Source: Squalus acanthias | Taxonomy: Eukaryota | Length of the DNA: 64,000 bases | Direction of reading: 5' to 3' | NCBI GenBank assembly: GCA_030390025.1 | Contig: JASTWF010000033.1 | Span: 932,001 to 996,000, forward strand | In this document: piece after piece, positions 21,081-44,467 of the stretch | Position numbering within the stretch: position 1 is the first letter of the stretch | How the letters are laid out: each line of letters starts with the position of its first letter | Translations under genes and position numbers: made by a program | The notes under the pieces: model-generated | The model's input: only the letters and a program-made list of their open reading frames with translations | What the model was told of the DNA's origin: nothing | Databases searched by the model: none

Positions 21081-21081
21081 G

Positions 21082-21151
21082 TCATGATGCGGAGATGCCG
21101 GCGTAGGACTGGGGTGGACAAAAGTGAGAAGTCGCACAACACCAGGTTATA
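21082..21151 (-). mobile_element. Penelope-like terminal repeat fragment, left part, split by Tx1 copy 1
   Basis: Reverse complement of the PLE end at 45083-45151; continues at 32846-32910. Confidence 0.9.
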
Positions 21152-21641
21152 GTCCAACAGTTTTATTTGAAATCACAAGCTTTCGGAGCGGCTGACTGAG
21201 GAGCAGCGGCAGCAGAGTGGTGGTCTCTGTGGCCAGGAAGAGGAGAAGGAGAAGGAGAGCAGACAGCAGGCCACCACCAACAACAACCAACAACCACAAC
21301 TACTGAGGTGCCTGGAGAGAGAGGACAGGAGAGGAGAGAGAAAAGAAAAGAAGGCCAAGGCCATTAACAACAGAGGAGAGGCCTTTCCACACTGCCTCAT
21401 CAATTGGCCTCCATTTTAGGAGAGGGAGAGAGGGGAGAAAACAACAAAACATCCATCATCTGTTTGGAAGGAGGAAGGAAGGAAAGAACATCAGCTACAG
21501 GTGGGTGTGATTCTGGTGCACTCTCCCAGAGACTTTGTTTTGTAGGTGGGGGGAGGAAAGAAGAAAAATAAGAAGGCCGGAACATCCAAGGGGTGTGTGT
21601 GTGTGTGTGTGTGGCTTCTGTAAAAGCTAGGCCGCACACAC

Positions 21642-21824
21642 TGTGGTAACACTTTTCAGCTTCCTGTATGACATCACTTCCTGTAATCAGTCCAGGATAA
21701 ATACTGGACTGATCAGTTAGCTCTGGAAGAGGCATAGGGTAAGACCTCTTTTGTATGCAGCACCGTTTTAAGTTGATTAAAGCTTACATTAAGTTTACCA
21801 CGCGTAAGGCTCATTCTTACGACA
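21642..21824 (+). repeat. Gypsy 5' LTR
   Basis: TGTGGTAAC...TTACGACA; identical by eye to the 3' LTR. Confidence 0.97.
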
Positions 21825-21901
21825 ATTTAATCAACTTTTGAAACTTCGCACTCAAACTTTTTGGACGAACTCGGAGCTAAGGATCCAGGGAATCACCCAT
21901 C

Positions 21902-24900
21902 ATGGAAAACATCCTTAAACCATCGCGTCTTGACTTGGACCCAAACACCCCAGCAGCCGGTAAGGTGTGGAAACACTGGTATCGCACGTTTGAGAATTTT
22001 CTTGAGTATTGCAAAGCTGATGATAACTCAAAGTTGCGGATACTCATCAACTGTGTCACCCCGAATGTATTTCAGTATGTGGAAGACTGGGACAGTTATG
22101 AGGAGGCAATTCAGACGCTTAAGAGACTATATACTAAGACACCGAATGAGGTCTATGCTAGACATCTACTAGCTACAGCCCAACAAGGGCCGGAGGAATC
22201 CATTGATAAATTCCTCCAAGAGCTTCGCAGGCTTAGTATGGACTGTAACTTTCGGGCAGCCTCAGCTGAGCTATACCGCGAAGAAATGATCCGTGATGCG
22301 TTCATCTGCGGGCTTGCCTCCCCATTTATACGCCAGCGTCTACTGGAAAGTAAGACACTTGAGCTGCAGAGAGCTTATGACCTGGCTTGCTCTCTAGATC
22401 TGGCAAAAAGAAATGCAGACCTTTTTACAGTGCCCAGACCTCGGTCTGCTGCCTTAACTACAGTCAGGCAATTTAAGAGGCCACAGGTGAACTCTATTAG
22501 GGAGGACTTTATCCCTGACGATCGATCTGATGACTTCACTGATGAAGAGGATGATGACCCCACTGTGGCAGCCTCTTGGCAATCTAAGAAATGCTTTTTT
22601 TGTGGTGATGAGTTTCACCCTCGGAGATTCTGCCCTGCTCGCAATGCGTTTTGCAGTCATTGCAACAAAAAGGGTCATTTTGTAAAGGTTTGCCTATCAA
22701 GAGCCTCTACGAGGGCTTATCAAGCTAAGTCCTACCGAACTGCCCCAGTAAGGGCCTATCAGGATGTTCCAACTAAAAACTATCGTGCTTCCTCTCGGGT
22801 TTTTTCTCGAAGAAACACACCTAGAATTTCAGCCACTCTTTGTGCAACGACACCAATTACAGCTGCTTGTCCTCAGAATCTATTCCATGCAGCTACAAAA
22901 GCATCAATTAATGGACATACTTTAGATGCCTTAATTGACTCAGGTAGCACTGATAGTTTCATTAGGGAACAGACTGTTGCACAGTTAAAGCTACATGTTT
23001 TTCCATCGGACCAGGCAGTTGCGATGGCTCAGTCATCACTTAATACCAGAATTTCTGGCTTCTGTGTAGTTGAAATAATGCTTAAAGGTCACAGGTATCC
23101 CTCCACCCGGCTTTCGGTGCTCAAGGACTTATGTAGTGATCTTATCTTAGGGCTGGATTTTCAAAAGCAGCATAAGAAGCTTACCATTGAGTTCGGCGGA
23201 TCCAAACCTGAACTCACTATTTCTAATATACGACCTCGATTACCGTTCTGTGCCTTGTCAGCAGCTTCACTGGATGAACCCTCACTGTTTGCCAGTATCC
23301 CTCCTCGATGCAAACCGATTATAACAAAGTCACGCCGTTTCAGTCAGGAAGACCAGTCTTTTATTGCGGCTGAGATTTCTCGGCTTTTAGCAGAGGATAT
23401 CATCGAGCCTTGTTCGTCGCCATGGCGCGCCCAGGTCGTTATTGTTAAGAACCCTCTACAACCTCACAAGAAACGGCTGTGCATTGACTATTCACAGACC
23501 ATCAATCAGTATACGGACTTGGACGCATACCCATTGCCGCGCATCGATGATATGGTTAATAAATTGGCTGAGTACACGGTGTTCTCGACTTATGATCTGA
23601 AAAGCGCCTATCATCAGGTACCCTTGAAGGTCTCAGACAAGCAGTATACAGCCTTTGAAGCCAATGGGCGGCTGTATCAATTTCGTCGCCTCCCCTTTGG
23701 GGTCACTAATGGAGTGGCTGTCTTCCAGCGAGCAATGGATGACCTGGTCAAACAGGAAGACTTGAAGGATACGTTTCCTTATCTGGACAATATTACTGTC
23801 GCAGGTCGCAATCAGCAGGAACATGACGCCAATCTCCAACGATTTTGGGATGCACTCCAGCACCGTAATTTGACATTGAATGCGGCTAAATCCATTGAGT
23901 CACAACCAACTATCAACATCCTTGGCTATTGTGTGGGCAATGGCATCATTAAACCTGACCCTGAAAGGCTTCGCCCACTCCAAGAACTCCCGCCACCTAA
24001 GAATCCGGCCTCCTTGCGCCGGGCCCTCGGCCTGTTTGCATACTATGCGAAATGGATTCCTAACTTCTCGGACCGAATCCAACCTCTACTGAAGGCCAGC
24101 ACATTCCCACTAGACACAACGGCTGTTGCAGCCTTTAACCTCCTGAAAAAGCAGTTGGAGAAAGCGGCTCTTCACTCCATCGATGAGAGTCTTCCTTTCG
24201 TGGTTGAGTGTGATGCCTCGGAGGTGGCAATCTCAGCCACTCTGAATCAGGAAGGTCGTCCGGTGGCATTTTTGTCCAGGACTTTTCAAGGGGCTGAGCT
24301 ACATTATCCTCCAGTCGAGAAAGAAGCTACAGCCATCATAGAGGCAGTACGGAAGTGGAGTCATCTCCTGGCTCGCCAGCACTTTACCTTAATCACGGAC
24401 CAGCGATCGGTCGCCTTCATGCTCGATAATCGAAAACGGACCAAAATTAAAAATAATAAAATCCAGCTTTGGCGGCTGGAATTGGCCTCTTTTGGTTACA
24501 CCATCCACTATCGACCTGGCAAGGAGAATGTGGCTCCGGATACCCTCACACGAGCATTCTGCTCCGCCATGGCACCCTCTACGCTCGTAGACATCCATGA
24601 TGGGTTGTGTCATCCAGGCGTTACTCGCATGCTGCACTTCGTGCGGTCCCGAAATCTCCCATTCTCTACCGGGGATGTAAAGAAGATGTGCTCGGACTGC
24701 AGAGTCTGTGCGGAATTGAAACCTCGGTTTTTCCGCCCCTCGGGTGGTATACTCATACATGCGACCCAGCCAATGCAAAGGCTTAGCATCGATTTTAAGG
24801 GGCCGTTGCCCTCTTCGACTCGCAACACTTATCTATTAACAATGGTTGATGAGTATTCTCGTTTTCCGTTTGCCTTTCCCTGCCCCAATATGCTGACAAC

Positions 24901-25858
24901 CACGGTTATCAGCTGCCTTGAACAGGTATTTGCTTTCTGTGGCATGGCATCCTATATTCATTCAGATCGGGGCCCTTCTTTTATGTCGGGAGAACTCAAG
25001 GCCTATCTCTCGGAACGGGGTATTGCTGCCAGCAAAACGACGCCTTATCATCCGGTTGGGAATGGGCAAGTCGAGCGTTTTAACGCTATCATCTGGAATG
25101 CGGTACGTCTGGCTTTGAGATCTCGGGGCCTACCCAACCAGCATTGGGAAGCAGTACTTCCAGACGCATTACACTCCACACGGTCCCTCCTTTCGACCGC
25201 CACAAATACGACGCCTCATGAACGGTTCTTCCGATTTCAGCGTCGCTCATCCTATGGGACATCTCTCCCGTCGTGGCTGACTGCACCGGGACCAGTGCTA
25301 CTCCGAAGATATGTCCGGGCGTCTAAGAATGACCCCCTGGTAGATGAGGTTGAGCTCACTGACGTCAACCCTACCTACGCCTATATTCGGTATCCTGACG
25401 GTCGGGAATCTACCGTGTCATTGCGGGATCTGGCTCCCTGCCCGCCGAAACATAGAGGGACACCAGGGGATGATATTGTACCAGGCACATCTCTGGGCTT
25501 GCCAGGTGCCTCTCATCATGATCGGGATCTGACGCCGGCTGGTACCTCACTCCAGCGTGCCGACCTGGGGCAGACTGACTATGAGCCCGTCGGGGCTCGC
25601 ACGCGCAGCCACGATCAACCCTGTACCGTACGCTCAGAAACGGATCTGCCACAGCCCTGCCCGACACCCATTCGGGTACCAGTACACAGTCAGGATCGTT
25701 CTGACCCCTCACAGAGCGGGCTGGAGCACTCGGACTCTGGTCCATGGCCCGCAGCGGGTAAACGGGCTAGGGGCCCTCTACCGCTACGAGAACCCAAACG
25801 GGTGCGGCTCTCCCTCATCCAACGGCTACGAAATGGAGGGAGCATTCCGGCCTCCTAA
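21902..25858 (+). CDS. Gypsy gag-pol polyprotein, 1318 aa, uninterrupted
   Basis: Two Zn knuckles (CFFC..H..C, CSHC..GH..C), protease LIDSGS, RT (LPFG, YLDN), RNase H (ECDAS, EKEA, TDQ), integrase HHCC and DDE (SIDF, HSDRG, NGQVERFN) in PR-RT-RH-IN order. Confidence 0.97.
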   Translation: MENILKPSRLDLDPNTPAAGKVWKHWYRTFENFLEYCKADDNSKLRILINCVTPNVFQYVEDWDSYEEAIQTLKRLYTKTPNEVYARHLLATAQQGPEESIDKFLQELRRLSMDCNFRAASAELYREEMIRDAFICGLASPFIRQRLLESKTLELQRAYDLACSLDLAKRNADLFTVPRPRSAALTTVRQFKRPQVNSIREDFIPDDRSDDFTDEEDDDPTVAASWQSKKCFFCGDEFHPRRFCPARNAFCSHCNKKGHFVKVCLSRASTRAYQAKSYRTAPVRAYQDVPTKNYRASSRVFSRRNTPRISATLCATTPITAACPQNLFHAATKASINGHTLDALIDSGSTDSFIREQTVAQLKLHVFPSDQAVAMAQSSLNTRISGFCVVEIMLKGHRYPSTRLSVLKDLCSDLILGLDFQKQHKKLTIEFGGSKPELTISNIRPRLPFCALSAASLDEPSLFASIPPRCKPIITKSRRFSQEDQSFIAAEISRLLAEDIIEPCSSPWRAQVVIVKNPLQPHKKRLCIDYSQTINQYTDLDAYPLPRIDDMVNKLAEYTVFSTYDLKSAYHQVPLKVSDKQYTAFEANGRLYQFRRLPFGVTNGVAVFQRAMDDLVKQEDLKDTFPYLDNITVAGRNQQEHDANLQRFWDALQHRNLTLNAAKSIESQPTINILGYCVGNGIIKPDPERLRPLQELPPPKNPASLRRALGLFAYYAKWIPNFSDRIQPLLKASTFPLDTTAVAAFNLLKKQLEKAALHSIDESLPFVVECDASEVAISATLNQEGRPVAFLSRTFQGAELHYPPVEKEATAIIEAVRKWSHLLARQHFTLITDQRSVAFMLDNRKRTKIKNNKIQLWRLELASFGYTIHYRPGKENVAPDTLTRAFCSAMAPSTLVDIHDGLCHPGVTRMLHFVRSRNLPFSTGDVKKMCSDCRVCAELKPRFFRPSGGILIHATQPMQRLSIDFKGPLPSSTRNTYLLTMVDEYSRFPFAFPCPNMLTTTVISCLEQVFAFCGMASYIHSDRGPSFMSGELKAYLSERGIAASKTTPYHPVGNGQVERFNAIIWNAVRLALRSRGLPNQHWEAVLPDALHSTRSLLSTATNTTPHERFFRFQRRSSYGTSLPSWLTAPGPVLLRRYVRASKNDPLVDEVELTDVNPTYAYIRYPDGRESTVSLRDLAPCPPKHRGTPGDDIVPGTSLGLPGASHHDRDLTPAGTSLQRADLGQTDYEPVGARTRSHDQPCTVRSETDLPQPCPTPIRVPVHSQDRSDPSQSGLEHSDSGPWPAAGKRARGPLPLREPKRVRLSLIQRLRNGGSIPAS

Positions 25859-25876
25859 TCTTTTGGGGGGGGAGAA

Positions 25877-26059
25877 TGTGGTAACACTTTTCAGCTTCCT
25901 GTATGACATCACTTCCTGTAATCAGTCCAGGATAAATACTGGACTGATCAGTTAGCTCTGGAAGAGGCATAGGGTAAGACCTCTTTTGTATGCAGCACCG
26001 TTTTAAGTTGATTAAAGCTTACATTAAGTTTACCACGCGTAAGGCTCATTCTTACGACA
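25877..26059 (+). repeat. Gypsy 3' LTR
   Basis: Copy of 21642-21824, preceded by the polypurine tract. Confidence 0.97.
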
Positions 26060-26088
26060 CACACCATATTAAACACCCCTTTCCCATT

Positions 26089-26177
26089 ATAACAACAGAA
26101 AACGCTGGAAAAACTCAGCAGGCCAGGCAGCATCCGTAGAGAGAGAAAGAGAGTTGACGTTCCAGGTCGATGACTGA
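26089..26177 (-). mobile_element. 89-bp insertion in the Tx1 copy 1 5'UTR; probable terminal fragment of a second PLE family
   Basis: Absent from copy 3; flanked by direct repeat CCTTTCCCATT (26078-26088, 26178-26188). Minus strand shows a broken hammerhead half (GTCATCGACCTGGAACGT). Family call is from recall. Confidence 0.6.
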
Positions 26178-26698
26178 CCTTTCCCATTGCCTGACCTGGG
26201 ACAGCTGGAGCTGCCTAGGTGAAGTCCCCAATTAATTTAATCTTATTGGGCATCGTTAAGACCTGGTGCAGGACTGAGCCTGGGCATCGCCAGCTATCCC
26301 AGGTGAAGACATCTTCTCCCCCCACCAGAAGACCACCACCAAAGACTTTCATTACATCGGAGAGTGCACCCCCCCCTGCCAACACCCACCCACCCACCAT
26401 CCTGAGTGGCGACCCTGCCCTTGCGGCTTCCCTCCTTCCCACCCCCTCTCTCTCTCTCTTTGTCTCTTGTCTCTCTCTGCCTCTCTCTCTAAGAGGCACC
26501 TCAATTTACTTATAATTAAGTACCCATTGAGCAGAGGGGAGAAGGCCCCTCTCCCAATTCAATCAACTAAAGGGAGAGGTGTGCCTTCAATTTAACAGCT
26601 CCCTCTGCTCAGGGGAAAACAGAAACAAAAAACCGAGGCCATTAACACCTTCAGGCCTGTGACTTGGGGTGAGTGTAGCCCTTAAAGACCCGTCCATT

Positions 26699-28853
26699 AT
26701 GGCGAGCACATCTTCGTCGGTGGCGGGGGCAGCGAGGACGTATGCGAGCGTGGCAGCCGCGGCCACGGCCGCAGCCACGAGTCCTCCTGTTACCCCGTCA
26801 CCTTTTACCCTCTTTACGAGGAAGAATGGGGTCAAGAGCTACACTCACCCCAACATGACTATAGAGGCGTGCGTAAAAGCCATGGCTGGGGTTGTCGGCC
26901 CTTCAGCCATCGTCGCCGCCTCTAAAATGTACGGCAAGGCTGTGTTCTTCCTGGGGTCGGAGCGGGCGGTGTCCCTGGCCATCGAGAAGGGGCTCACCGT
27001 GGGCGGGACCTTCCTGCCGGTGGACCCCCTTGAGGCCACCGCGCAAAGGATTGTGGTTTCCAATGTCCCGCCCTTTGTTCCGGGTGAGCTCCTCCTCCCC
27101 CACCTACGTCAACTGGGGGAGGTGAGGTCGGGGATCACACCCATCCCGCTCGGCTTCCGGGAAGCCAGCCTTCGGCACGTCTTCTCCTTCCGGCGCCAGC
27201 TTTTCGTCCGGCTGGCGCGGGAGGAGGACGCGGATGGCGCGTTCATAGTGCTCCACGGGGGGACCGCCCACCGCGTCTTCTGGACCTCGGACAGCGTGCG
27301 GTGCTACGCCTGTAAGGAGGTGGGGCACGTCCGCAAAAACTGCCCCGCCTCCAAGGCCGCCACGACACCTGGCGCGGCCAGGGCTGGCGCCGCCGCCCCC
27401 CCTCCCCCTGACACAGTCCGCGCGTCGACGGCGACGGATGCGCGGTCGAAATCGGAGGCCAACACCATCACGGCCTCCGGGGGGGGGAGGGAGAGCGTCC
27501 GGGGGGAAGGAAGGCGCGTAGAAAAAATAAACACCTAAGGGCGGATCCCCTCGTGGAGGAAACATCCGAGTTGACCGAACTCACGCCCGAGTACATCGCG
27601 GAGTTGATTGGGACGCCTGAGACTGGGGGGGTCCTCGTGCCCGGGCCCGTGACCGTGACCGCAACTGCCGAGGCAGCTAAATCAAGACCTGCGGCCGGGC
27701 TCGGGCCCGAGGGGCCCAAGAAACCCAGTCGTCGGAAGGGGGCAGAGAGAGAGGCCCCAGCAGACATGGAGGCCTCCCCCTCTCCGGGCCCCAACTTGTT
27801 AAAAAGAAAGCTCCGCCCCCAGGAGGAGGACTGCGAGGAGGAAGGTCCCTCCGCAGAAGGGGGGGAGTCGCCCGCCGCGGGTGCTGCGCCCCACCCCACC
27901 ACCGTCATCGTCACACGCGATCGGCAGGGGTCGTCTGTCCCTCGGGAGGGTGAGACAGCCGAGTCTGTCCGACCTGTGCGTCCCGGGGATGGGGAAGAGA
28001 CCCTGCCCGTGGGGGGGGGGCACGGAACGACCCGCGGAGGGAAATGTAGTTCCGTAACCGTTGCTCCTCGCCGGGTCGGGCGTCCTGGGGACTGGGGCGG
28101 GCGAGGCCAAAGAGGCTGAAGCCGAGCCCGCCTTTTATAACCCAGATATCTCCCAGGGACTGCTCGACCTGGTGGAGGAGTGTAGCAATCCCCAGCCCGC
28201 TGGGTCGGAGGTTGGTGGCGGGGAGACAGAAAGCCCCCTGACTCCGTCTCTGATGTTGGCGCCGGACGTACTGGAGGAATTTGAGATTATTTTCTCCCCG
28301 GTTTCTCCGGTCGCTCCGGCGCCTGAGGCGGGGGGGGGGCCCTGAACCGCCGCCGCCTCCCGGCCCGGCGCCCCTGAAGGAGCCCAGGGTGGACTCCTCT
28401 GCCACCGATCCTGGGGGTGGGATCGTGACGGAGGCGGGGCCGGCCGGTGCGGCCGAGCCGTTCGCTGCACCCCGTGCGACGGACGGGTCGGCCGCCGGTG
28501 ACGACCTCCCGGAGGAGGACGGGGACTCGGTGGTGGGCATCGAGGACGATTTGGAGTCCATCGGCAGCGAGGTGATGGACTCCCTCGTGCCCTTCACCAA
28601 CTCTCCCCTCATCCCCGTAGGGGAACTCCGGGATTTTATGGTCATGAGCCAGGGTCGTCACAAGAAGATCCGGCTGGCCCTCGACAAGTGGTCGGAGCTG
28701 GCGCTGCTCGTCGTGTCCGTCCGCGCCGCCGTTAAAATCATGGGCGCGGACAAGGACTTTGGCCGGCTCGAGCTGCGTCGGCTCAAGAGTTTCCACACTG
28801 GGCTGCTGAGGGAGTGGCGGTCGTCAGTGACCGCGCTCCCTCCCCTCCGTTAG
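26699..28853 (+). pseudogene. Tx1 copy 1 ORF1 (nucleic-acid-binding protein with CCHC knuckle), frameshifted
   Basis: IVVSNVPPFV, FSFRRQ, CYACKEVGHVRKNC; frame changes relative to copy 3 at G runs near 27480, 28015 and 28335. Confidence 0.9.
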
Positions 28854-28878
28854 GTAGAGGTTGCACTATGCTTCTGAG

Positions 28879-31800
28879 ATGAAGATAACCATAGCCAGCC
28901 TCAACATCAACGGCAGCAGGGAGGCGCGCCGTAGATTCAATAACTTCTCGGTCCTTCGGGACGGGAAATATGCGGTGTGCTTCCTGCAAGAAACCCACAC
29001 CGCTCCGGGAGACGAGGCCACGTGGCTCCTGGAGTGGCAAGGAGCGGTCAGCATGAGTCACCTCTCCAACAATTCCTGTGGGGTGGCTGTCTTGCTGGCC
29101 CCGCATTTTCAGCTGGAGATCTTGAGGGTCAAGGAGCACGTGCCGGGCCGCTTGCTCCAGGTCACTGTTCGCCTGGGAGGCGTGCCGCTCCATTAAGTGA
29201 ATGTGTACGCCCCCCGGACCGGTGCGCAGCAAGTGCGCTTCTTCGGAGAAGTGTCCGCTCTTCTGGGCTCCATCGACGTGGGCGAGTGCGTCATCCTCGG
29301 GGGGGATTTCAATTGTACCCTCGAGGCGCGGGACCGGTCGGGTCCCCCGCGAAGCCCGGCGGCGATGGAGAAGTTGCGGGACCTGGTCGGGTCCTTCGAC
29401 TTGGTGGACGTCTGGCGAAATCTCCATCCAGACTCCAGCGCCTTCACGAGCGTGAGGTCTGGAGGAGGAAGGTCCAGAATCGACCGCCTTTACATTTCCC
29501 GGGCGTACGTCTCCTGCGTTCCGGCGGCTTCCATGCGGCCGGTGCCGTGCACGGACCACCACCTGGTGTGGGCGGAGCTCGCTCCACTGCGCGCGCGGGG
29601 GGGGTCCGCGTACTGGCATTTTAACAACCTGCTGCTGGAGGACGCGCGGGTCCGGGATTCGTTTCGCCGGTTCTGGGCCGACTGGAGAAGGAAGCGGGGA
29701 GGATTCCCCTCCTTGAGGCTATGGTGGGACGTGGGCAAGGCTCACGTCCGCGTCTTCTGTCAGGAGTACGCGAAGGGGTCGACCAAGAGGCGGGAGGCCC
29801 GGGTCGGGCGATTGGAGAAAGAAGTGCTCGACCTGGAGTCCCGTCTCGGTCAGGTCGTCGAGGACCCGGCCCTGCGGAAGGTGTACGAAGAGAAGAAGGG
29901 CGCGCTGAAGGACCTGCAGCTGGTCGGGTCCCGAGGCGCGTACGTGAGGTCGCGGATCCAGTTCCTGTGGGACCTGGACCGCGGCTCCCCCTTCTTCTAC
30001 TCGCTGGAAAAAAGACGGGGGGTCCATAAGCAGCTCTTGGGGCTGCTGGCCGACGACGGATCTCTGGTCTCGGATCCGGAGGGCATCAGCGCGGAGGCCC
30101 GGGCCTATTACGGGGCTCTGTTCTCTTCGGATCCGTCCAGCGAGGATGCGCGCAGAGTTTTGTGGGAGGACCTGACGAAGGTCGGCCCGGAGGGCGCCGA
30201 GAATTTAGAAGCTCCGCTAAGCCTGGCGGAGCTGACCGGCGCCCTGCGCCAGCTCTCGAGGGGCAAGTCCCCGGGGCTGGACGGGCTGACCGTGGAGTTC
30301 CACAGGGCGTTCTGGGACGACTTGGGGGACGACTACGCGCGGGTCCTGGGGGAAAGTCTGGCGACCGGGGAGATGCCCCTCTCTTGGCGCAGGGCGGTCA
30401 TCGTCCTGCTGCCCAAGAAGGGCGATCTCCGCCTACTTAAGAACTGGCGCCCGGTCTCCCTCCTCAGCACGGACTACAAAATTTTCGCCAGGGCTATGTC
30501 TGCTCGCCTTGGCACCGTGCTGGCCCGCATGATCCACCCCGACCAGTCCTACACGGTCCCGGGCCGGAGTATCCACGATAACATCCATCTGGTCCGGGAC
30601 CTGGTCCACCATTCCCAGAGGGCTGGTCTGTCGGTCGCCTTCCTTTCCCTGGATCAGGAGAAGGTGTTCGACAGGGTGGATCACGAGTATCTTTTCGGGA
30701 CTCTGCGCGCATTCGGGTTCGGGACGCATTTCGTCGCCCGGATCCGACTTCTGTACGCCGCCGCGGAGTGTCTCATTAAAGTTAACGGGTCTTTGACGGC
30801 GCCCCTTCGCTTCGGGAGGGGGGTGCGTCAGGGATGCCCCATGTCCGGTCAGTTATACACCATTTGCGTGGAGCCTTTCCTGCGCCTCTTGCGGAAGAGG
30901 TTGACGGGACTGGCTCTGCAAGGGCCGGGCGTGGAGGTGGTCATCTCGGCTTACGCCGATGACGTGCTCCTCGCGGTCACGGATCCCGTCGACTTGCGGA
31001 GGATGCGAGAATGTCAGCAGATTTACTCGGATGCATCCTCCGCCAAGATCAACTGGGAGAAATGTTCTGGACTCCTGGTGGGCCCATGGCGGGTGGACTC
31101 CCTGCCGAAGGAGTTCGGGCCTTTCGGCTGGAGCACCACGCACCTCCTCTACCTGGGAGTCTACCTCAGCCCGGCCGAGGACGCCTGGCCGTCGAACTGG
31201 CAAGAGCTGGAGGCCAAAGTCACCGCTCGCCTAGGGCGCTGGACAGGACTGCTCCGAGTGTTGTCCTACAGGGGTCGAGCGCTGGTCATAAACCAGCTGG
31301 TGGCCGCCATGTTGTGGTACCGGGTGGTCACTTTGATCCCTCCCCCTGCGTTTGTCGCCAAGATGCAGAAGAAGCTCGTCGACTTCTTCTGGGACAAAAG
31401 GAAGCACTGGGTCTCTGCCGCGGTTTTGAGTCTCCCGCTTAGGGAGGGCGGTCAGGCGCTGGTGTGCCTTCGCACCCAGGCGGCGACTTTCCATCTTCAG
31501 ACGCTGCAGAGATACCTGTACGTGGAGAATCCTCCTAGGTGGCGTGCGCTGGCGACGTATTTCTTCCGCCAGCTGCACGGCCTCAATTACGACACGCAGC
31601 TCCTGTTTGTGAGAGTGGGTGGCACGCGTGCCAGCCTGCGGGAGCTGCCTGTCTTCTACCAGGTACTGCTATGGGTTTGGAACAGCGTCGCCTCCGAGCG
31701 CAGTTCTCCCCCGTCAGGAGCGGCGGCCGTTCTTCGGGAGCCGCTGTTCAGGAATCCGCACCTCCACGACCGCGGGTTCGGCTGGCTGGCGGAGGGTAGG

Positions 31801-32778: not shown

Positions 32779-32845
32779 TTTATTAAGTTTCATTTAAAGT
32801 TTTAATTGATTTACAGTAAATTTTGATTTGTCCAACCAAAAAGAG

Positions 32846-32910
32846 CAACACCAGGTTATAGTCCAACAGATTTATTTAAAATTACAAGCTTTCGGAACAG
32901 TCGCCACTTC
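32846..32910 (-). mobile_element. PLE terminal repeat fragment, right part, truncated inside the hammerhead
   Basis: Matches 44196-44260. Confidence 0.9.
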
Positions 32911-32917
32911 TATCTCT

Positions 32918-33398
32918 AATTAGAGATAGATGACAGGGTCATTGAGGGGAACACAGTAACTGCAATTAGAGATAGATGACAGGGTAATTTAGGGGAACAC
33001 AGTAACTGTAATTAGAGATAGAGGACAGGGTAATTTAGGGGAACACAGTAACTGTGTAATTAGAGAAGAGGACAAGGTAATTTAGGGGAACACAGTAACT
33101 GTGTAATTAGTGATACAGGACAGGGTAATTTAGGGGAACACAGTAATTGTGTAAATAGAGATAGAGGAAAGGTTAATTTAGGGGAACACAGCAATTGTGT
33201 AATTAGAGATAGAGGACAGAGTAATATAGCGGAACACAGGAACTGTGTAATTAGAGATAGAGGGCAGGGTAATTTAGGGGAACACGGTAACTGTAATTAG
33301 AGATAGAGGGCTGGGTAATTTAGGGGAACACAGTAACTGTATAATTAGAGATAGAGGACAGAGTAATTTAGGGGAACACAGTAACTGTATAATTAGAT
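32918..33398 (+). repeat. 48/46-bp satellite block 2
   Basis: About ten tandem units. Confidence 0.97.
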
Positions 33399-33399
33399 G

Positions 33400-33469
33400 T
33401 CATGATGCGGAGATGCCGGTGTTGGACTGCGGTGGACAAAAGTGAGAAGTCGCACAACACCAGGTTATA
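33400..33469 (-). mobile_element. PLE terminal repeat fragment, left part, split by Tx1 copies 2-4
   Basis: Near-identical to 21082-21151; continues at 42833-42897. Confidence 0.9.
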
Positions 33470-35604
33470 TTCGGGTTCGGGACGCATTTCGTCGCCCGGA
33501 TCCGACTTCTGTACGCCGCCGCGGAGTGTCTCATTAAAGTTAACGGGTCTTTGACGGCGCCCCTTCGCTTCGGGAGGGGGGTGCGTCAGGGATGCCCCAT
33601 GTCCGGTCAGTTCTACGCCGTTTGCGTGGAGCCTTTCCTGCGCCTCTTGCGGAAGAGGTTGATGGGACTGGCTCTGCAAGGGCCAGGCGTGGAGGTGGTC
33701 CTCTCGGCTTACGCCGATGACGTGCTCCTCGCGGTCACGGATCCCGTCGACTTGCGGAGGATGCGAGAATGCCAGCAGATTTACTCGGATGCATCCTCCG
33801 CCAAGTTCAACTGGGAGAAATGTTCTGGACTCCTGGTGGGCCCATGGCGGGTGGACTCCCTGCCGGAGGAGTTCGGGCCTTTCGCCTGGAGCACCACGCA
33901 CCTCCTCTACCTGGGAGTCTACCTCAGCCCGGCCGAGGACTCCTGGCCGGCGAACTGGCAAGAGCTGGAGGCCAAAGTCACCGCTCGCCTAGGGCGCTGG
34001 ACAGGACTGCTCCGAGTGTTGTCCTACAGGGGTCGAGCGCTGGTCATAAACCAGCTGGTGGCCGCCATGTTGTGGTACCGGTTGGTCACTTTGATCCCTC
34101 CCCCTGCGTTTGTCGCCAAGATGCAGAAGAAGCTCGTCGACTTCTTCTGGGACAAAAGGAAGCACTGGGTCTCTGCCGCGGTTTTGAGTCTCCCGCTTAG
34201 GGAGGGCGGTCAGGCGCTGGTGTGCCTTCGCACCCAGGCGGCGACTTTCCGTCTTCAGACGCTGCAGAGATACCTGTACGTGGAGAATCCTCCTAGGTGG
34301 CGTGCGCTGGCGACGTATTTCTTCCGCCAGCTGCACGGCCTCAATTACGACACGCAGCTCCTGTTTGTGAGAGTGGGTGGCACGCGTGCCAGCCTGCGGG
34401 AGCTGCCTGTCTTCTACCAGGAACTGCTATGGGTTTGGAACAGCGTCGCCTCCGAGCGCAGTTCTCCCCCGTCAGGAGCGGCGGCCGTCCTTCGGGAGCC
34501 GCTGTTCAGGAATCCGCACCTCCACGACCGCGGGTTCGGCTGGCTGGCGGAGGACAGGGCTGTGCCCGGTAAGGTGACCAGAGTCGGGGACCTGCTCGAT
34601 GGCGGAGGAGCGGGCTGGATGGCGCCGGATGAGTTGGCGAGGCGCATGTCCTGGGTCAACGTCCGGCTCGCGGTCAAAGCCATCGAGTCGCTAAAAGTGG
34701 CACTGGGCCCCGTCTCCACTAGGTGTGTCGAGGAGGCTCAAGCACGTGGGGCGATCCCGTCCGAACTGACCCCCGTTCGGACGGAATTCCTTATCGGCGC
34801 CCGGCCCCGAATCCTCCCTCGGGAGCCGCCGCCTCACCACTTGAGCCTTCTCGGAGAAATGCCCTCCGTGCCCTTTCAATCCGCACGGAGGCGTTTCCTG
34901 TACGGGCTGCTCCTGCACACTCTCCACTTTGCCATCTTCGTCTGCCGTCCGGACACGCCTTGGCGTACCATCCTGCCGTCCGGCAGAGGCGAAGGTCCCC
35001 ATTGGAAGGCTCTCTACGCGGGAGTCTTCCCTTGTTCTATTGGGGACTTGGCTTGGAGGGTGTTGCACGGAGCAGTCCCGTGCAATAGGATTTTAAGTAG
35101 GTTTACGGACTCCCAGGCTGCTTGCCATTTCTGCGGCCTGGAGGAGTCCGTCTATCACGTTTATATTGAGTGTGAGAGGTTGCAGCCCCTCTTTCATTAT
35201 TTGAAGGGGCTGCTCCTCAATTTCTGGTTGCACTTCAGCCCCACGCTCCTGATCTACGGTCACCCGGTGCGGAGGGGAGCGGGTAGGTCGGAGGACCTCC
35301 TCGTAGGACTGCTCCTGGGCCTGGCCAAGAAAGCCATTAATTGGTCCAGGCAGCGGGCGGTCGAGGGGGTCGTTCGGCCCGATTGCCTGCCTCTCTTCCG
35401 CGGCCATGTTCGCGCCCGGGTGGCCCTGGAGATGGAGCACGCGGTGTCCGCCGGCACGCTTGAGTTTTTCCGCGACCGGTGGGCGCCGCGGGGACTGGAG
35501 TGCATCGTCACCCCGGACTTCCAAATTTTGATTTGATTTACTAAGTTTCATTTAAAGTTTTAATTGATTTACAGTAAATTTATCATTTGTCCAACCAAAA
35601 AGAG
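33470..35604 (+). mobile_element. Tx1 copy 2, 5'-truncated within RT (2.1 kb)
   Basis: Starts at ttcgggttcgggacgc (equivalent to about 30712), open to the stop at 35536, ends AAAAAGAG; duplication at 33455-33469 and 35605-35619. Confidence 0.95.
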
Positions 35605-36640
35605 CAACACCAGGTTATAGTCCAACAGCTTTATTTGAAATCACAAGCTTTCGGAGCTGCTGACGAAGGAGCAGAAGCAGCAGAGTGGTGGTCTCTGTGA
35701 CCAGGAAGAGGAGAAGGAGAAGGAGAACAGACAGCAGGCCACCACCAACACCCAACAACCACAACAACTGAGGTGCCTGGAGAGAGAGGACAGGAGAGGA
35801 GAAGGAAAAGAAAGGAAGGCCAAGGCCATTAACAACAGAAGAGAGGCCTTTCCACCACTGCCTCCTCAATTGGCCTCCATTTTAGGAGAGGGAGAGAGGG
35901 GAGAAAACATCACAAACAAACATCATCTGTTTGGAAGGAGGAGGAAGGAATGAAAGAAACATCTACAGGTGGGTGATCTATTTGGTGCACTCTCCCAGAG
36001 ACTTTGTTTTGTAGGTGGGGGGAGGAAAGAAGAAAAAGAAGAAGGCCGGAACATCCAAGGGGTGTGTGTGTGTGTGTGTGTGGCTTCTGTAAAAGCTAGG
36101 CCGCACACACCATATTAAACACCCCTTTCCCATTGCCTGACCTGGGACAGCTGGAGCTGCCTAGGTGAAGTCCCCAATTAATTTAATCTTATTGGGCATC
36201 GTTAAGACCTGGTGCAGGACTGAGCCTGGGCATCTCCAGCTATCCCAGGTGAAGACATCTTCTCCCCCCACCAGAAGACCACCACCAAAGACTTTTATTA
36301 CATCGGAGAGTGCACCCCCCTGCCAACACCCACCCACCCACCATCCTGAGTGGCGACCCTGCCCTTGCGGCTTCCCTCCTTCCCACCCCCTCTCTCTCTC
36401 TCTTTGTCTCTTGTCTCTCTCTGCCTCTCTCTCTAAGAGGCACCTCAATCTATTTTAATTAAGTACCTATTGAGCAGAGGGGAGAAGGCCCCTCTCCCAA
36501 TTAATTCATATAAAGGGAGAGGTGTGCCTTCAATTTAAGAGCTCCCTCTGCTCAGGGGAAAACATGAACAAAAACCGAGGCCATTAACACCTTCAGGCCT
36601 GTGACTTGGGGTGAGTGTAGCCCTTAAAGACCAACCCATC

Positions 36641-38803
36641 ATGGCGACCACATCTTCGCCGGTGGCGGGGGCAGCGAGGACATACGCGAGCGTGGCAGCC
36701 GCGGCCACGGCCGCAGCCACGAGTCCTCCTGTTACCCCGTCACCTTTTACCCTCCTTACGAGGAAGAATGGGGTCAAGAGCTACACTCACCCCAACATGA
36801 CTGTAGAGGCGTGCGTAAAAGCCATGGCTGGGGTTGTCGGCCCTTCAGCCATCGTCGCCGCCTCTAAAATGTACGGCAAGGCTGTGTTCTTCCTGGGGTC
36901 GGAGCGGGCGGTGTCCCTGGCCATCGAGAAGGGGCTCACCGTGGGCGGGACCTTCCTGCCGGTGGACCCCCTTGAGGCCACCGCGCAAAGGATTGTGGTT
37001 TCCAACGTCCCGCCCTTTGTTCCGGGTGAGCTCCTCCTCCCCCACCTACGTCAACTGGGGGAGGTGAGGTCGGGGATCACACCCATCCCGCTCGGCTTCC
37101 GGGAAGCCAGCCTTCGGCACGTCTTCTCCTTCCGGCGCCAGCTTTTCGTCCGGCTGGCGCGTGAGGAGGACGCGGATGGCGCGTTCACGGTGCTCCACGG
37201 GGGGACCGCCCACCGCGTCTTCTGGACCTCGGACGGCGTGCGGTGCTACGCCTGGAAGGAGGTGGGGCACGTCCGCAAAAACTGCCCCGCCTCCAAGGCC
37301 GCCACGACACCTGGCGCGGCCAGGGCTGGCGCCGCCGCCCCCCCTCCCCCTGATACTGTCCGCGCGTCGACGGCGACGGATGCGCGGTCGAAATCGGAGG
37401 CCAACGCCACCACGGCCTCCGGCGGGGAGGAGGGAGAGCGTCCGGGGGGAAGGAAGGCGCGCAGAAAAAATAAACACCTAAGGGCGGATCCCCTCGTGGA
37501 GGAAACATCCGAGTTGACCGAACTCACGCCCGAGTACATCGCGGAGTTGATCGGGACGCATGAGACTGGGGGGGTCCTCGTGCCCGGGCCCGTGCCCGTG
37601 CCCGTGACCGCAACTGCCGAGGCCGCTGAATCAAGACCTGCGGCCGGGCTCGGGCCCGAGGGGCCCAAGAAACCCAGTCGTCAGAATGTGGCAGAGAGGG
37701 AGGCCCCAGCAGACATGGAGGCCTCCCCCTCTCCGGGCCCCAATATGTTAAAAAGAAAGCTCCGCCCCCAGGAGGAGGAGGACTGCGAGGAGGAAGGTCC
37801 CTCCGCAGAAGGGGGGGAGTCGCCCGCCGCGGTTGCTGCGCCCCACCCCACCACCGTCATCGTCGCGCGCGAGCGGCGGGGGTCGCCTGTCCCTCGGGAG
37901 GGTGAGACAGCCGAGTCTGTCCGACCTGTGCCTCCCGGGGATGGGGAAGAGACCCTGCCCGTGGGGGGGGGCGCGGGACAACCCGCGGAGGGAAATGTAG
38001 TTCCGGAACCGTTGCTCCTCGCCGGGTCGGGCGTCCTGGGGACTGGGGCGGGCGAGGCCAAAGAGGCTGAAGCCGAGCCCGCCTTTTATAACCCAGATAT
38101 CTCCCAGGGACTGCTCGACCTGGTGGAGGATTATAACAATCCCCAGCCCGCTGGGTCGGAGGTTGGTGGCGGGGAGACAGAAAGCCCCCTGACTCCGTCT
38201 CTGATGTTGGCGCCGGACGTACTGGAGGAATTTGAGATTATTTTCTCCCCGGTTTCTCCGGTCGCTCCGGCACCTGAGGCGGGGGGGGGCCCTGAACCGC
38301 CGCCGCCTCCCGGCCCGGCGCCCCTGAAGGAGCCCAGGGTGGACTCCTCTGCCACCGATCCTGGGGGTGGGATCGTGACGGAGGCGGGGCCGGCCGGTGC
38401 GGCCGAGCCGTTCGCTGCACCCCATGTGACGGACGGGTTGGCCGCCGGTGACGACCTCCCGTAGGAGGACGGGGACTCAGTGTTGGGCACCGAGGACGAT
38501 TTGGAGTCCATCAGCAGCGAGGCGATGGACGCCCTCGTGCCCTTCACCGACTCTCCCCTCATCCCCGTAGGGGAACTCCGGGATTTTATGGCCATGAGCC
38601 AGGGTCGTCACAAGAAGATCCGGCTGGCCCTCGACAAGTGGTCGGAGCTGGCGCTGCTCGTCGTGCCCGTCCGCGCCGCCGTTAAAATCATGGGCGCGGA
38701 CAAGGACGTTGGCCGGCTTGAGCTGCGTCGGCTCAAGAGTTTCCACACTGGGCTGCTGAGGGAGTGGCGGTCGTCAGTGACCGCGCTCCCTCCCCTCCGT
38801 TAG
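36641..38803 (+). pseudogene. Tx1 copy 3 ORF1, one premature stop
   Basis: Single frame; TAG at 38462-38464 where copy 1 has GAG; knuckle altered to CYAW. Confidence 0.92.
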
Positions 38804-38828
38804 GTAGAGGTTGCACTATGCTTCTGAG

Positions 38829-41800
38829 ATGAAGATAACCATAGCCAGCCTCAACATCAACGGCAGCAGGGAGGCGTGCCGTAGATTCAATAACTTCTCG
38901 GTCCTTCGGGACGGGAAATATGCGGTGTGCTTCCTGCAAGAAACCCACACCGTTCCGGGAGACGAGGCCACGTGGCTCCTGGAGTGGCAAGGAGGGGTCA
39001 GCATGAGTCACCTCTCTAACAATTCCTGCGGGGTGGCTGTCTTGCTGGCCCCACATTTTCAGACGGAGATCTTGAAGGTCAAGGAGCACGTGCCGGGCCG
39101 CTTGCTCCAGGTCACTGTTCGCCTTGGAGGCGTGCCGCTCCATTTAGTGAACGTGTACGCCCCCCGGACCGGTGCGCAGCACGTGCGCTTCTTCGGAGAA
39201 GTGTCCGCTCTTCTGGGCTCCATCGACGTGGGCGAGTGCGTCATCCTCGGGGGGGATTTCAATTGTACCCTCGAGGCGCGGGACCGGTCGGGTCCCCCGC
39301 GAAGCCCGGCGGCGATGGAGAAGTTGCGGGACCTGGTCGGGTCCTTCGACTTGGTGGACGTCTGGCGAAATCTCCATCCCGACTCCAGCGCCTTCACGAG
39401 CGTGAGGTCTGGAGGAGGAAGGTCCAGAGTCGACCGCCTTTACATTTCCCGGGCGTACGTCTCCTGCGTTCCGGCGGCTTCCATGCAGCCGGTGCCGTGC
39501 ACGGACCACCACCTGGTGTGGGCGGAGCTCGCTCCGCTGCGCGCGCGGGGGGGTTCCGCGTACTGGCATTTTAACAACCTGCTGCTGGAGGACGCGCGGT
39601 TCCGGGATTCGTTTCGCCGGTTCTGGGCCGACTGGAGAAGGAAGCGGGGAGGCTTCCCCTCCTTGAGGCTAAGGTGGGACGTGGGCAAGGCTCACGTCCG
39701 CGTCTTCTGTCAGGAGTACGCGAAGGGGTCGACCAAGAGGCGGGAGGCCCGGGTCGGGCGATTGGAGAAAGAAGTGCTCGACCTGGAGTCCCGTCTCGGT
39801 CAAGTCGTCGAGGACCCGGCCCTGCGGAAGGTGTACGAAGAGAAGAAGGGTGCGCTGAAGGACCTGCAGCTGGCCGGGTCCTGAGGCGCGTACGTGAGGT
39901 CGCGGATCCAGTTCCTGCGGGACCTGGACCGCGGCTCCCCCTTCTTCTACTCGCTGGAAAAAAGACGGGGGGTCCGTAAGCAGCTCTTGGGGCTGCTGGC
40001 CGACGACGGATCTCTTGTCTCGGATCCGGAGGGCATCAGCGCGGAGGCCCGGGCCTATTACGGGGCTCTGTTCTCTTCGGATCCGTCCAGCGAGGATGCG
40101 CGCAGAGTTTTGTGGGAGGACCTGCCGAAGGTCGGCCCGGAGTGCGCCGAGAATTTAGAAGCTCCGCTAAGCCTGGCGGAGCTGACCGGCGCCCTGCGCC
40201 AGCTCTCGAGGGGCAAGTCCCCGGGGCTGGACGGGCTGACCGTGGAGTTCCACAGGGCATTCTGGGACATCTTGGGGGACGACTACGCGCAGGTCCTGGG
40301 GGAAAGTCTGGCGACCGGGGAGATGCCCCTCTCTTGGCGCAGGGCGGTCATCGTCCTGCTGCCCAAGAAGGGCGATCTCCGCCTACTTAAGAACTGGCGC
40401 TCGGTCTCCCTCCTCAGCACGGACTACAAAATTTTCGCCAGGGCTATGTCTGCTCGCCTTGGCACCGTGCTGGCCCGCATGATCCACCCCGACCAGTCCT
40501 ACACGGTCCCGGGCCGGAGCATCCACGATAACATCCATCTGGTCCGGGACCTGGTCCACCATTCCCAGAGGGCTGGTCTGTCGGTCGCCTTCCTTTCCCT
40601 GGATCAGGAGAAGGCGTTCGACAGGGTGGATCACGAGTATCTTTTCGGGACTCTGCGCGCATTCGGGTTCGGGACGCATTTCGTCGCCCGGATCCGACTT
40701 CTGTACGCCGCCGCGGAGTGTCTCATTAAAGTTAACGGGTCTTTGACGGCGCCCCTTCGCTTCGGGAGGGGGGTGCGTCAGGGATGCCCCATGTCCGGTC
40801 AGTTATACGCCGTTTGCGTGGAGCCTTTCCTGCGCCTCTTGCGGAAGAGGTTGACGGGACTGGCTCTGCAAGGGCCGGGCGTGGAGGTGGTCCTCTCAGC
40901 TTACGCCGATGACGTGCTCCTCGCGGTCACGGATCCCGTCGACTTGCGGAGGATGCGAGAATGCCAGCAGATTTACTCGGACGCATCCTCCGCCAAGATC
41001 AACTGGGAGAAATGTTCTGGACTCCTGGTGGGCCCATGGCGGGTGGACTCCCTGCCGGAGGAGTTCGGGCCTTTCGCCTGGAGCACCACGCACCTCCTCT
41101 ACCTGGGAGTCTACCTCAGCCCGGCCGAGGACGCCTGGCCGGCGAACTGGCAAGAGCTGGAGGCCAAAGTCACCGCTCGCCTAGGGCGCTGGACAGGACT
41201 GCTCCGAGTGTTGTCCTACAGGGGTCGAGCGCTGGTCATAAACCAGCTGGTGGCCGCCATGTTGTGGTACCGGTTGATCACTTTGATCCCTCCCCCTGCG
41301 TTTGTCGCCAAGATGCAGAAGAAGCTTGTCGACTTCTTCTGGGACAAAAGGAAGCACTGGGTCTCTGCCGCGGTTTTGAGTCTCCCGCTTAGGGAGGGTG
41401 GTCAGGCGCTGGTGTGCCTTCGCACCCAGGCGGCGACTTTCCGTCTTCAGACGCTGCAGAGATACCTGTACGTGGAGAATCCTCCTAGGTGGCGTGCGCT
41501 GGCGACGTATTTCTTCCGCCAGCTGCACGGCCTCAATTACGACACGCAGCTCCTGTTTGTGAGAGTGGGTGGCACGCGTGCCAGCCTGCGGGAGCTGCCT
41601 GTCTTCTACCAGGAACTGCTATGGGTTTGGAACAGCGTCGCCTCCGAGCGCAGTTCTCCCCCGTCAGGAGCGGCGGCCGTCCTTCGGGAGCCACTGTTCA
41701 GGAATTCGCACCTCCACGACCGCGGGTTCGGCTGGCTGGCGGAGGGCAGGGCTGTGCCCGGTAAGGTGACCAGAGTCGGGGACCTGCTCGATGGCAGAGG

Positions 41801-42728
41801 AGCGGGCTGGATGGCGCCGGAGGAGTTGGCGAGGCGCATGTCCTGGGTCAACGTCCGGCTCGCGGTCAAAGCCATCGAGTCGCTAAAAGTGGCACTGGGC
41901 CCCGTCTCCACTAGGTGTGTCGAGGAGGCTCAGGCACGTGGGGCGATCCCGTCCGATCTGACCCCCGTTCGGACGGAATTCCTTATCGGCGCCCGGCCCC
42001 GAATCCTCCCTCGGGAGCCGCCACCTCACCACTTGAGCCTTCTCGGAGAAATGCCCTCCGTGCCCTTTCAATCCGCACGGAGGCGTTTCCTGTACGGGCT
42101 GCTCCTGCACACTCTCCACTTTGCCATCTTCGTCTGCCGTCCGGACACGCCTTGGCGTACCATCCTGCCGTCCAGCGGAGGCGAAGGTCCCCATTGGAAG
42201 GCTCTCTACGCGGGAGTCTTCCCTTGTTCTATTGGGGACTTGGCCTGGAGGGTGTTGCACGGAGCAGTCCCGTGCAATAGGATTTTAAGTAGGTTTACGG
42301 ACTCCCAGGCTGCTTGCCATTTCTGCGGCCTGGAGGAGTCCGTCTATCACATTTATGTTGAATGTGAGAGGTTGCAGCCCCTCTTTCATTATTTGAAGGG
42401 GCTGCTCCTCAATTTCAGGTTGCACTTCAGCCCCACGCTCCTGATCTACGGTCACCCGGTGCGGAGGGGAGCGGGTAGGTCGGAGGACCTCCTCGTAGGA
42501 CTGCTCCTGGGCCTGGCCAAGAAAGCCATTAATTGGTCCAGGCAGCGGGCGGTCGAGGGGGTCGTTCGGCCCGATTGCCTGCCTCTCTTCCGCGGCCGTG
42601 TTCGCGCCCGGGTGGCCCTGGAGATGGAGCACGCGGTGTACGCCGGCACGCTTGAGTTTTTCCGCGACCGGTGGGCGCCGCGGGGGCTGGAGTGCATCGT
42701 CACCCCGGACTTCCAAATTTTGATTTGA
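38829..42728 (+). pseudogene. Tx1 copy 3 ORF2, one premature stop
   Basis: APE, RT (YADD) and Cys-rich motifs; TGA at 39882-39884 where copy 1 has CGA. Confidence 0.95.
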
Positions 42729-42809
42729 TTTATTAAGTTTCATTTAAAGTTTTAATTGATTTACAGTAAATTTTGATTTGTCAACCAAAAAGAGCAACAC
42801 CAGGTTATA

Positions 42810-42832
42810 TTGATTTGTCCAACCAAAAAGAG
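42810..42832 (+). mobile_element. Tx1 copy 4, 23-bp extreme 5' truncation (TTGATTTGTCCAACCAAAAAGAG)
   Basis: Last 23 nt of the element between target copies at 42795-42809 and 42833-42847 (one mismatch). Confidence 0.75.
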
Positions 42833-42897
42833 CAACACCAGGTTCTAGTCCAACAGATTTATTTAAAATTACAAGCTTTCGGAGCTGTCGCCACTTC
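42833..42897 (-). mobile_element. PLE terminal repeat fragment, right part
   Basis: Same sequence and truncation point as 32846-32910. Confidence 0.9.
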
Positions 42898-44188: not shown

Positions 44189-44231
44189 AGTCGCACAACA
44201 CCAGGTTATAGTCCAACAGATTTATTTAATT

Positions 44232-44269
44232 TTACAAGCTTTCGGAGCTGTCGATCCTTCCTCAGGTAA
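44232..44269 (-). ncRNA. Minimal type I hammerhead ribozyme motif, one stem II mismatch
   Basis: Minus strand TTAC CTGAGGA A GGATC GACA GCTCC GAAA GC TT GTAA. Confidence 0.75.
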
Positions 44270-44467
44270 GTTAGCAGTGAGAGAATCTCCCAGAATTCAC
44301 AATTTAAACACAGACAAAATCTATTCAAATCTTTCCCTACATCAAAGACACACTAAGAGCACAGCCAAGACAATGAGATGTGTCCCAGGGCGTCCAACGT
44401 GTCAAACCACCTGCTGGCTGCATATCCAGTCAATTTGTGTTGGTTCTTGTGTTAGTCTTTTTAAACG

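Follow-up and report, generated by a model that had tools for sequence, protein, structure and literature searches.

A young, high-copy long interspersed nuclear element (LINE) of the Tx1 lineage very probably inserts preferentially at one site in the 3' tail of a Penelope-like element (PLE), into the antisense strand and by target-primed reverse transcription. We examined this LINE in a 64,000-nt stretch of Squalus acanthias DNA (assembly GCA_030390025.1, contig JASTWF010000033.1, positions 932,001 to 996,000 of the forward strand), hereafter the window, and across the assembly from which the window comes; coordinates are those of the window. An initial annotation, made from the letters of the window, had proposed that the LINE is specific for the terminal repeat of a PLE, and the genome-wide count agrees with sequence-specific use of the PLE tail. 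The last 18 nt of the LINE gave 252 exact matches, against 0 for a control pattern. Of these 3' ends, 189 (75%) are followed by the target 15-mer in the form C or G plus AACACCAGGTTATA, at listed places that span dozens of contigs, and about a quarter lie elsewhere. By comparison, Tx1 families have been called specific where more than 20% of flanks are of one type (PMC4494074), a level that this LINE exceeds.

LINE copies and target sites in the window

All four LINE copies in the window lie on the + strand, belong to one family and are bracketed by the 15-mer CAACACCAGGTTATA. Its duplex context as a target is GTCGCA-CAACACCAGGTTATA-GTCC. The 15-mer matches exactly on the + strand at 21137, 32846, 33455, 35605, 42795 and 44196, and with one mismatch at 42833 (+; TTCTA) and 45083 (-); the sites at 44196 (+) and 45083 (-) are unoccupied. 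These 8 matches compare with 0.13 expected from shuffles, and 8 was reached in 0 of 100 shuffles. Five of the six positions initially listed for the 15-mer (21137 to 42795) are exact, whereas the sixth, 42833, carries the mismatch. The LINE 3' end CCAAAAAGAG finishes at 32845, 35604, 42794 and 42832, each time abutting the following 15-mer as first described, and the four insertions noted then, which differ in 5' extent, were recovered: 11.7 kb with a nested long terminal repeat (LTR) element, 7,175 bp, 2,135 bp and 23 bp. The further claim that the LINE starts right after the 15-mer holds for position; however, the opening 38 nt of each full-length copy (GTCCAACAG.TTTATTTGAAATCACAAGCTTTCGGAGC) resemble the PLE and are not specific to the LINE. 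The LINE copies, their targets and the PLE fragments that hold them are as follows.

21081..21136, - strand: long-tail form of the 3' tail in PLE fragment copy 1, to the left of the target; direct reading, sequence identical to the long-tail arm at empty sites
21137..21151, + strand: target 15-mer, 5' duplication copy of full-length LINE 1; exact match
21152..32845, + strand: full-length LINE copy 1, 11,694 bp including the nested LTR element; PLE-like leader at 21152-21189
32846..32860, + strand: target 15-mer, 3' duplication copy of LINE 1; exact match
32861..32905, - strand: remainder of PLE fragment copy 1, antisense; 5'-truncated within helix II of the hammerhead-like motif, then satellite
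33399..33454, - strand: 3' tail of PLE fragment copy 2; direct reading
33455..33469, + strand: target 15-mer; exact match
33470..35604, + strand: 5'-truncated LINE copy, 2,135 bp, corresponding at 98.5% identity to positions 5043-7175 in the full copy; RVT_1 and zf-RVT
35605..35619, + strand: target 15-mer between the truncated and the full-length copy; exact match
35620..42794, + strand: full-length LINE copy 2, 7,175 bp; PLE-like leader at 35620-35657
36605-38464 and 38808-42728, + strand: open reading frames ORF1 and ORF2, respectively, of LINE copy 2; ORF2 has one in-frame stop at 39882-39884
42795..42809, + strand: target 15-mer; exact match
42810..42832, + strand: LINE tail of 23 bp, an extreme 5' truncation that matches the final 23 nt of the element exactly
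42833..42847, + strand: target 15-mer with one mismatch; sequence match
42848..42892, - strand: remainder of PLE fragment copy 2, antisense; satellite junction the same as in fragment copy 1

The two full-length copies are 97.5% identical (6,678 aligned positions) and belong to different tail sub-lineages, and the reading frames of copy 1 are split into several pieces. The adjoining trio of 2,135, 7,175 and 23 bp records three events, each with its own 5' extent, at a single original site.

Target preference and duplications across the genome

A search of the assembly with the 146-nt LINE tail returned 1,322 candidates, 40 of which were scored, all at 100% identity. In a positional sample made up of the first 30 matches in positional order (L031-L060), the full 15-mer was present at 23, and an antisense PLE tail, from several PLE subfamilies, followed at 21. 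Across all 60 loci there were 64 distinct LINE 3' ends, 46 carrying the 15-mer and 39 continuing into PLE sequence. At every one of the 39 the LINE runs antisense to the PLE, the orientation that the initial annotation had called constant. The LINE pieces in these loci are mostly 97-99% identical to the full copy of the window, indicating that the family is young; in 21 of the 60, a further piece at 84-95% is present.

Target duplications were assessed in 33 distinct truncated copies with both junctions visible, using at least 13 of 15 matching positions as the threshold. A 15-bp duplication was found in 24, comprising 15 of 20 on-target and 9 of 13 off-target copies. All 9 off-target duplications open with CAACAC and then diverge, two of them also having CAACACCAG; the four off-target copies lacking a duplication are L050 and three rows of one amplified unit. 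The base directly after ...GAG tracks the subfamily of the LINE tail, with C in 37, G in 1 and A in 1 of the TGATTT type, and C in 0, G in 6 and A in 1 of the GGG type (Fisher p = 7e-7). Where the 3' duplication copy of an on-target insertion opens with G or A, the 5' copy has C (5/5). Taken together, these two patterns indicate that the junction base is copied from RNA. The template would continue past the LINE into sequence resembling the target, with the primer end at least 1 base inside the apparent duplication, which fits a read-through RNA tail pairing with the nicked strand for priming.

The shared opening of the off-target duplications is what would be seen if the LINE, by its endonuclease or by RNA pairing, read no more than the hexamer CAACAC and PLE tails were simply the commonest carrier. 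The PLE tail is extremely abundant, the target 24-mer (the 15-mer and the next 9 nt) having 98,841 exact copies in the 3.7-Gb assembly. However, we estimate from base composition and from a hexamer count in 18 kb of the window that the genome contains 1.7-3.1 million CAACAC sites. Exact PLE targets are ~3-6% of these, yet they account for 189 of the 252 insertions, so recognition reaches beyond the hexamer. Two of the 9 off-target sites also share CAACACCAG, a sign that more than six bases are read, and we consider a hexamer-only address improbable.

Still less probable is that the PLE-flanked copies are mostly segmental or tandem duplicates of a few ancestral insertions, multiplied by satellite amplification or unequal crossing-over. 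Such processes have left traces: the two PLE fragments of the window are copies of one insertion carried with the satellite, L011-L016 form a single amplified unit, certain tandem pairs are truncated at the same point, and half of the listed full-length copies are in arrays. Against this, the 39 PLE-flanked ends have 36 distinct 27-mers at +53..+80, drawn from several PLE subfamilies, and truncation points vary from locus to locus, differing at nearly every one, so the copies do not derive from one ancestral insertion. The matches are also distributed over dozens of contigs, the spacing within arrays varies (7,150-7,206 bp) and the two full copies of the window are of different tail sub-lineages, which leaves the duplication account largely refuted. 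The initial annotation had named two outcomes that would tell against its proposal, unrelated flanks at most copies or descent from one ancestral insertion; instead, three-quarters of the exact 3' ends are at the 15-mer and the downstream flanks are diverse.

Both the LINE tail and the PLE tail were found in contigs of four sequencing runs (organisms A-D), and no contig from these four runs bridges the LINE/PLE junction with at least 31 letters on each side. Separately, L011-L016, on two unplaced contigs, hold a 964-bp LINE fragment with the off-target flank CAACAC followed by AGGCTTCTAAGATAAG and no visible duplication, in a tandemly amplified unit. In run X8, labelled as another organism, the loose end of a contig enters this same off-target flank.

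The PLE tail and the LINE leader

Several features identify the host element as a PLE, as initially proposed. At a locus outside the window, the downstream flank of the LINE, read on the opposite strand, enters a 623-aa ORF with RVT_1 (E = 2e-8) and the same C-terminal YIGET...GLN motif as the PLE of the window. The ORF tail in the window reads ...VVYLIRC...WYIGETMQTLRHRMNGHR...GLNRD, and the C-terminal motif VVYLIRC...WYIGET...R..GH....GLN was read by eye. At a score of 0.97, the ESM Atlas neighbours of the PLE ORF are clusters from animals that hold RVT_1 and HTH_animal, with GIY-YIG in 23-77% of their members. Pfam detected no GIY-YIG in three PLE C-terminal translations, and a PDB sequence search with the PLE C-terminus gave a chance match only.

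The arrangement of the copies is also that of a PLE. Described PLE copies are 5'-truncated, inverted or tandem, and carry a one-sided tail extension of 30-40 bp (PMC8557442). Here, copies are 5'-truncated and often in close inverted pairs, as seen at 31 distinct unoccupied targets from 30 positional loci (L061-L090), and 24-mer matches place targets in + and - orientation 100-2,000 bp apart in the genome. Within empty-site pairs, one arm often has ~36 nt of extra tail (GTCCACCCCAGTCCAACRCCGGCATCTCCGCATCAT in PLE sense), which agrees with the 'tail' of PMC8557442, and the other arm ends ~20 nt past the 15-mer. L038, L040 and L057 hold inverted PLE pairs in which both arms have received LINE copies, oppositely oriented, in keeping with a separate target on each arm. 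The unoccupied targets of the window lie in two PLE features.

44185..44466, - strand: PLE terminal arm, inverted, whose target at 44196-44210 is unoccupied; inverted repeat, 282 nt, 96% complementary
44467..45150, + strand: 5'-truncated PLE with the ORF end at ~44500-44785, the hammerhead-like motif at 45024-45061, a minus-strand target at 45083-45097 (one mismatch) and the tail extension to ~45150

In PLE sense, the 3' end consists of a CUGANGA core, A, helix II, GAAA, GCUU, GUGAUUUC, AAAUAAA, N, CUGUUGGAC and the reverse complement of the 15-mer. The target starts 10 nt past AAATAAAN, 33 nt past the putative hammerhead cleavage site and ~20 nt before the short-form 3' end of the PLE. The last ~45 nt of the PLE are nearly invariant across subfamilies and are retained in every 5'-truncated copy; lying within this truncation-proof end, the target is available at ~10^5 sites in the genome.

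The initial annotation had called the terminal repeat ribozyme-bearing. This stands in part: a conserved CUGANGA...GAAA core and two supported helices are present, but no Rfam hammerhead was matched. No variation occurs at C15, G17-A18, G20-A21 or GAAA across 56 distinct PLE tails, and U16 of the core, replaced by C in 5 rows, is kept in at least 90%. In the two helices 96.2% of cells are paired, compared with a maximum of 51% on sliding, and one helix I pair varies among CG (31), UA (20) and UG (3). An additional A separates the core from helix II. Rfam reported no family at gathering score in the whole window and no hammerhead at E up to 10 in 42700-45400. We therefore call the feature a hammerhead-like motif, a putative ribozyme. 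One PLE subfamily (L002, L009, L046 and L071) has CCGACGA instead of CUGANGA, in 5 of the 56 tails. Assuming that the motif is a ribozyme, it has probably been lost in this subfamily, which LINEs nevertheless use as a target.

It is hardly credible that the 15-mer and the PLE-like sequence are parts of the LINE itself, acquired by 3' transduction or as a chimeric 3' untranslated region (UTR), rather than its target: one base of the 15-mer or more, counted from its start, does seem to be present in the RNA, and full-length copies have PLE-like sequence at their 5' end, but uninterrupted PLE tails hold a single 15-mer with the same flanks as the LINE, empty sites that refute the idea, and moreover the downstream PLE varies by subfamily and extends into PLE ORFs, and off-target copies have site-specific 15-bp duplications.

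Full-length copies of the LINE carry a PLE-derived leader. Among 10 full-length 5' ends examined, a biased sample composed of those in the window and of copies downstream of another LINE, 9 open with PLE antisense sequence, 31-38 nt long and of the GAAATCAC type. In both window copies the leader is of this type and the local PLE downstream is of the AAAATTAC type, the two differing at 3-4 positions, and the 34-mer spanning the junction of leader and LINE has 203 exact copies, the first 100 listed lying on at least 30 contigs. A leader that is unlike the local PLE and a junction repeated 203 times indicate that the leader is inherited with the element. We considered the leader as part of a long target duplication of at least 53 bp and rejected this, given the 3-4 mismatches to the local PLE and the 203 occurrences of the junction. 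The 16 nt after the leader (CTGACGAAGGAGCAGC) match PLE sense sequence but also resemble the 5' UTR of the LINE itself.

Leader and 15-bp duplication together rebuild a complete target at the 5' junction. This may explain why head-to-tail arrays are frequent: among the first 100 of 771 exact 5'-UTR matches, 50 are in 19 arrays, with spacings of 7,150-7,206 bp and one of 7,398 bp.

Relatives, mechanism and setting of the LINE

Assignment of the LINE to the Tx1 clade, made initially, is supported by its domains and by its closest relatives. In ORF2, Pfam found an apurinic/apyrimidinic endonuclease-like (APE) domain (Exo_endo_phos, E = 1.9e-11), RVT_1 (E = 6e-37) and, below the cut-off, zf-RVT. 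ORF1 gave zf-CCHC (E = 9e-5) in a fragment of copy 1 and no Pfam match in the 619-aa frame of copy 2; an ORF1 with a CCHC zinc knuckle is a feature of the Tx1 clade. For the 947-aa reverse transcriptase and C-terminal part of ORF2, the best named full-length match is the Xenopus laevis Tx1 149 kDa protein (YTX2_XENLA; 51% identity, 100% coverage), at 1031 bits against 180 bits for human L1 ORF2p and 74-80 bits for R2 proteins. The APE domain is 45% identical to the endonuclease (EN) of Tx1L (Tx1L residues 1-349). A quick maximum-likelihood tree of 23 rows, for which 22 of 120 listed matches were picked for length and names, placed this LINE in a three-row group with Tx1L and a sea-turtle (Caretta) copy, with a Shimodaira-Hasegawa-like approximate likelihood ratio test (SH-aLRT) value of 100. 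Relatives from a sea turtle and a stingray were among the matches. Named fish 'pol-like' Tx1-type proteins are 36-37% identical to the same part of ORF2 and lie on the opposite side of the tree from this LINE and Tx1L; we take them to be particular named families, namely Keno, Mutsu, Kibi, Koshi and Dewa.

The targets of these relatives place the LINE in a known pattern. Keno, Mutsu, Kibi, Koshi and Dewa, of the same clade and likewise with multicopy targets, insert into host genes or simple repeats (U2 snRNA (small nuclear RNA), 5S rDNA (ribosomal DNA), microsatellites and tRNA spacers), not into a transposable element (PMC4494074). Targets described for the clade as a whole are the piggyBac-type Tx1D, Mariner, Harbinger, LTR retrotransposons, satellites, U2 and U5 snRNA, 5S genes and microsatellites (PMC4494074). 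Tx1L of X. laevis, the type element of the clade, shares the ORF2 architecture of this LINE, and both are target-specific LINEs within another multicopy transposable element; however, Tx1L uses one site of the non-autonomous piggyBac element Tx1D, whereas this LINE uses a PLE, a retroelement, with a 15-bp duplication. Tx1L EN nicks nearly only at its expected site, and the tip of its betaB6-betaB5 hairpin is RDGH (PMC1950540). In our LINE, the loop of this hairpin, so named in PMC1950540, is three residues shorter (VRSGGG---RSR against VRVRDGHVSQSR). Crocodilian Tx1-Mar (Mariner-N4_AMi), Tx1-9_AMi (Harbinger) and Tx1-8_Crp and Tx1-4_AMi (LTR) similarly prefer a defined position in transposable elements (Kojima 2015, PMC4494074), although those families are old, at 85-87% to consensus, compared with the 97-99% seen among most copies here. 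That a LINE can live inside another transposable element, even a retrotransposon, is thus already established (PMC4494074). 'Penelope' has 0 occurrences in the main text of PMC4494074, and a full-text literature search found no Tx1 or other LINE family aimed at a PLE, Repbase and Dfam, where an entry may exist, being outside its scope.

In the mechanism that we favour, the LINE, encoding ORF1 and an ORF2 with APE, reverse transcriptase and C-terminal zinc-binding domains, would retrotranspose by target-primed reverse transcription. Its APE domain would nick the bottom strand at the left edge of the target or one base inside it (A^C^AACAC). The LINE RNA would run at least 1 base, and probably several, past ...GAG into target-like sequence, and this tail would pair with the nicked strand and prime cDNA synthesis, the top strand presumably being cut 15 bp downstream. 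In the arthropod rDNA LINEs R2 and R1, co-transcribed or read-through target sequence on the RNA aids precise priming at the nick. This aid is mentioned for R2 in PMC4494074, and our LINE would be alike in this respect. They differ in machinery: the endonuclease of R2 is restriction-like and R1 falls in another APE clade, whereas this LINE has an APE of the Tx1 clade.

Several points weigh against PLE-directed insertion by this route. The exact 15-mer is absent at 63 of the 252 exact 3' ends, so specificity is not absolute, and 9 of the 33 truncated copies have no clear duplication. Recognition of ~9-10 bp (CAACACCAG...) would suffice to send most insertions into the abundant PLE tails, and what looks like PLE specificity may owe as much to the abundance of the target as to a long recognition site. 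We infer the nick position, the read-through RNA and current activity, and reading frames are interrupted in both full-length copies of the window. L028, L029, L032 and L045 are short tandem pairs or triples of LINE fragments with a shared truncation point and the 15-mer between them, which may have arisen by slippage or unequal exchange between duplication copies, or by local duplication, and not by repeated insertion. Finally, the ORF2 tree has no outgroup (no L1).

Tentatively, the LINE could be regarded as a hyperparasite that renews its own landing pad, an idea in which we place clearly less confidence than in the site preference. Its address would lie in a part of the PLE that is safe from truncation and evolution, its read-through RNA would bear the target and serve as primer, leader and duplication would rebuild the target, each full insertion would add a site and arrays would grow. 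If this is true, an ORF2 that is 51% identical to that of Tx1L but has a different target amounts to a natural experiment in the retargeting of APE-type LINEs.

The finding is real and offers a good natural system for LINE addressing, and it is no surprise in kind: PLEs become the third retroelement class among Tx1 targets, a new target class for a known habit. The genome provides a data set for the specificity of APE-type LINEs, with ~10^5 near-identical sites, hundreds of young insertions, off-target sites that single out a CAACAC core, and junction bases linked to tail subfamily that inform on the pairing of RNA with target. Comparison with Tx1L, which has a sequence-specific endonuclease and another target, could reveal the residues that set the address, for example in the shortened betaB6-betaB5 hairpin, and such residues bear on the engineering of site-specific retrotransposon integration. 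Annotation of the genome is also affected, LINE arrays and PLE tails being systematically interleaved.

A 48-bp satellite makes up about a third of the window (18566-21080, 32917-33397, 42904-44188 and 45150-64000). Its junctions are identical for both LINE-bearing PLE fragments, indicating that a single PLE tail insertion of ~115 nt was copied along with the satellite, and that each satellite-borne copy of the fragment was then hit by LINEs separately. The remaining features, the second of which is not part of the LINE/PLE system, are these.

18566..21080, no strand: 48-bp satellite array holding PLE fragments; Tandem Repeats Finder
21642..26059, + strand: nested Gypsy-like LTR retrotransposon in LINE copy 1, 4.4 kb

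The nested Gypsy-like element looks very recent. Its 183-bp LTRs are 100% identical, with TG..CA ends and a 5-bp duplication (CACAC), and enclose a single 1,325-aa ORF with protease, reverse transcriptase, RNase H and integrase in that order. Just past it, ~105 nt at 26073-26177 are present in LINE copy 1 and absent from copy 2, reflecting an insertion or a deletion.

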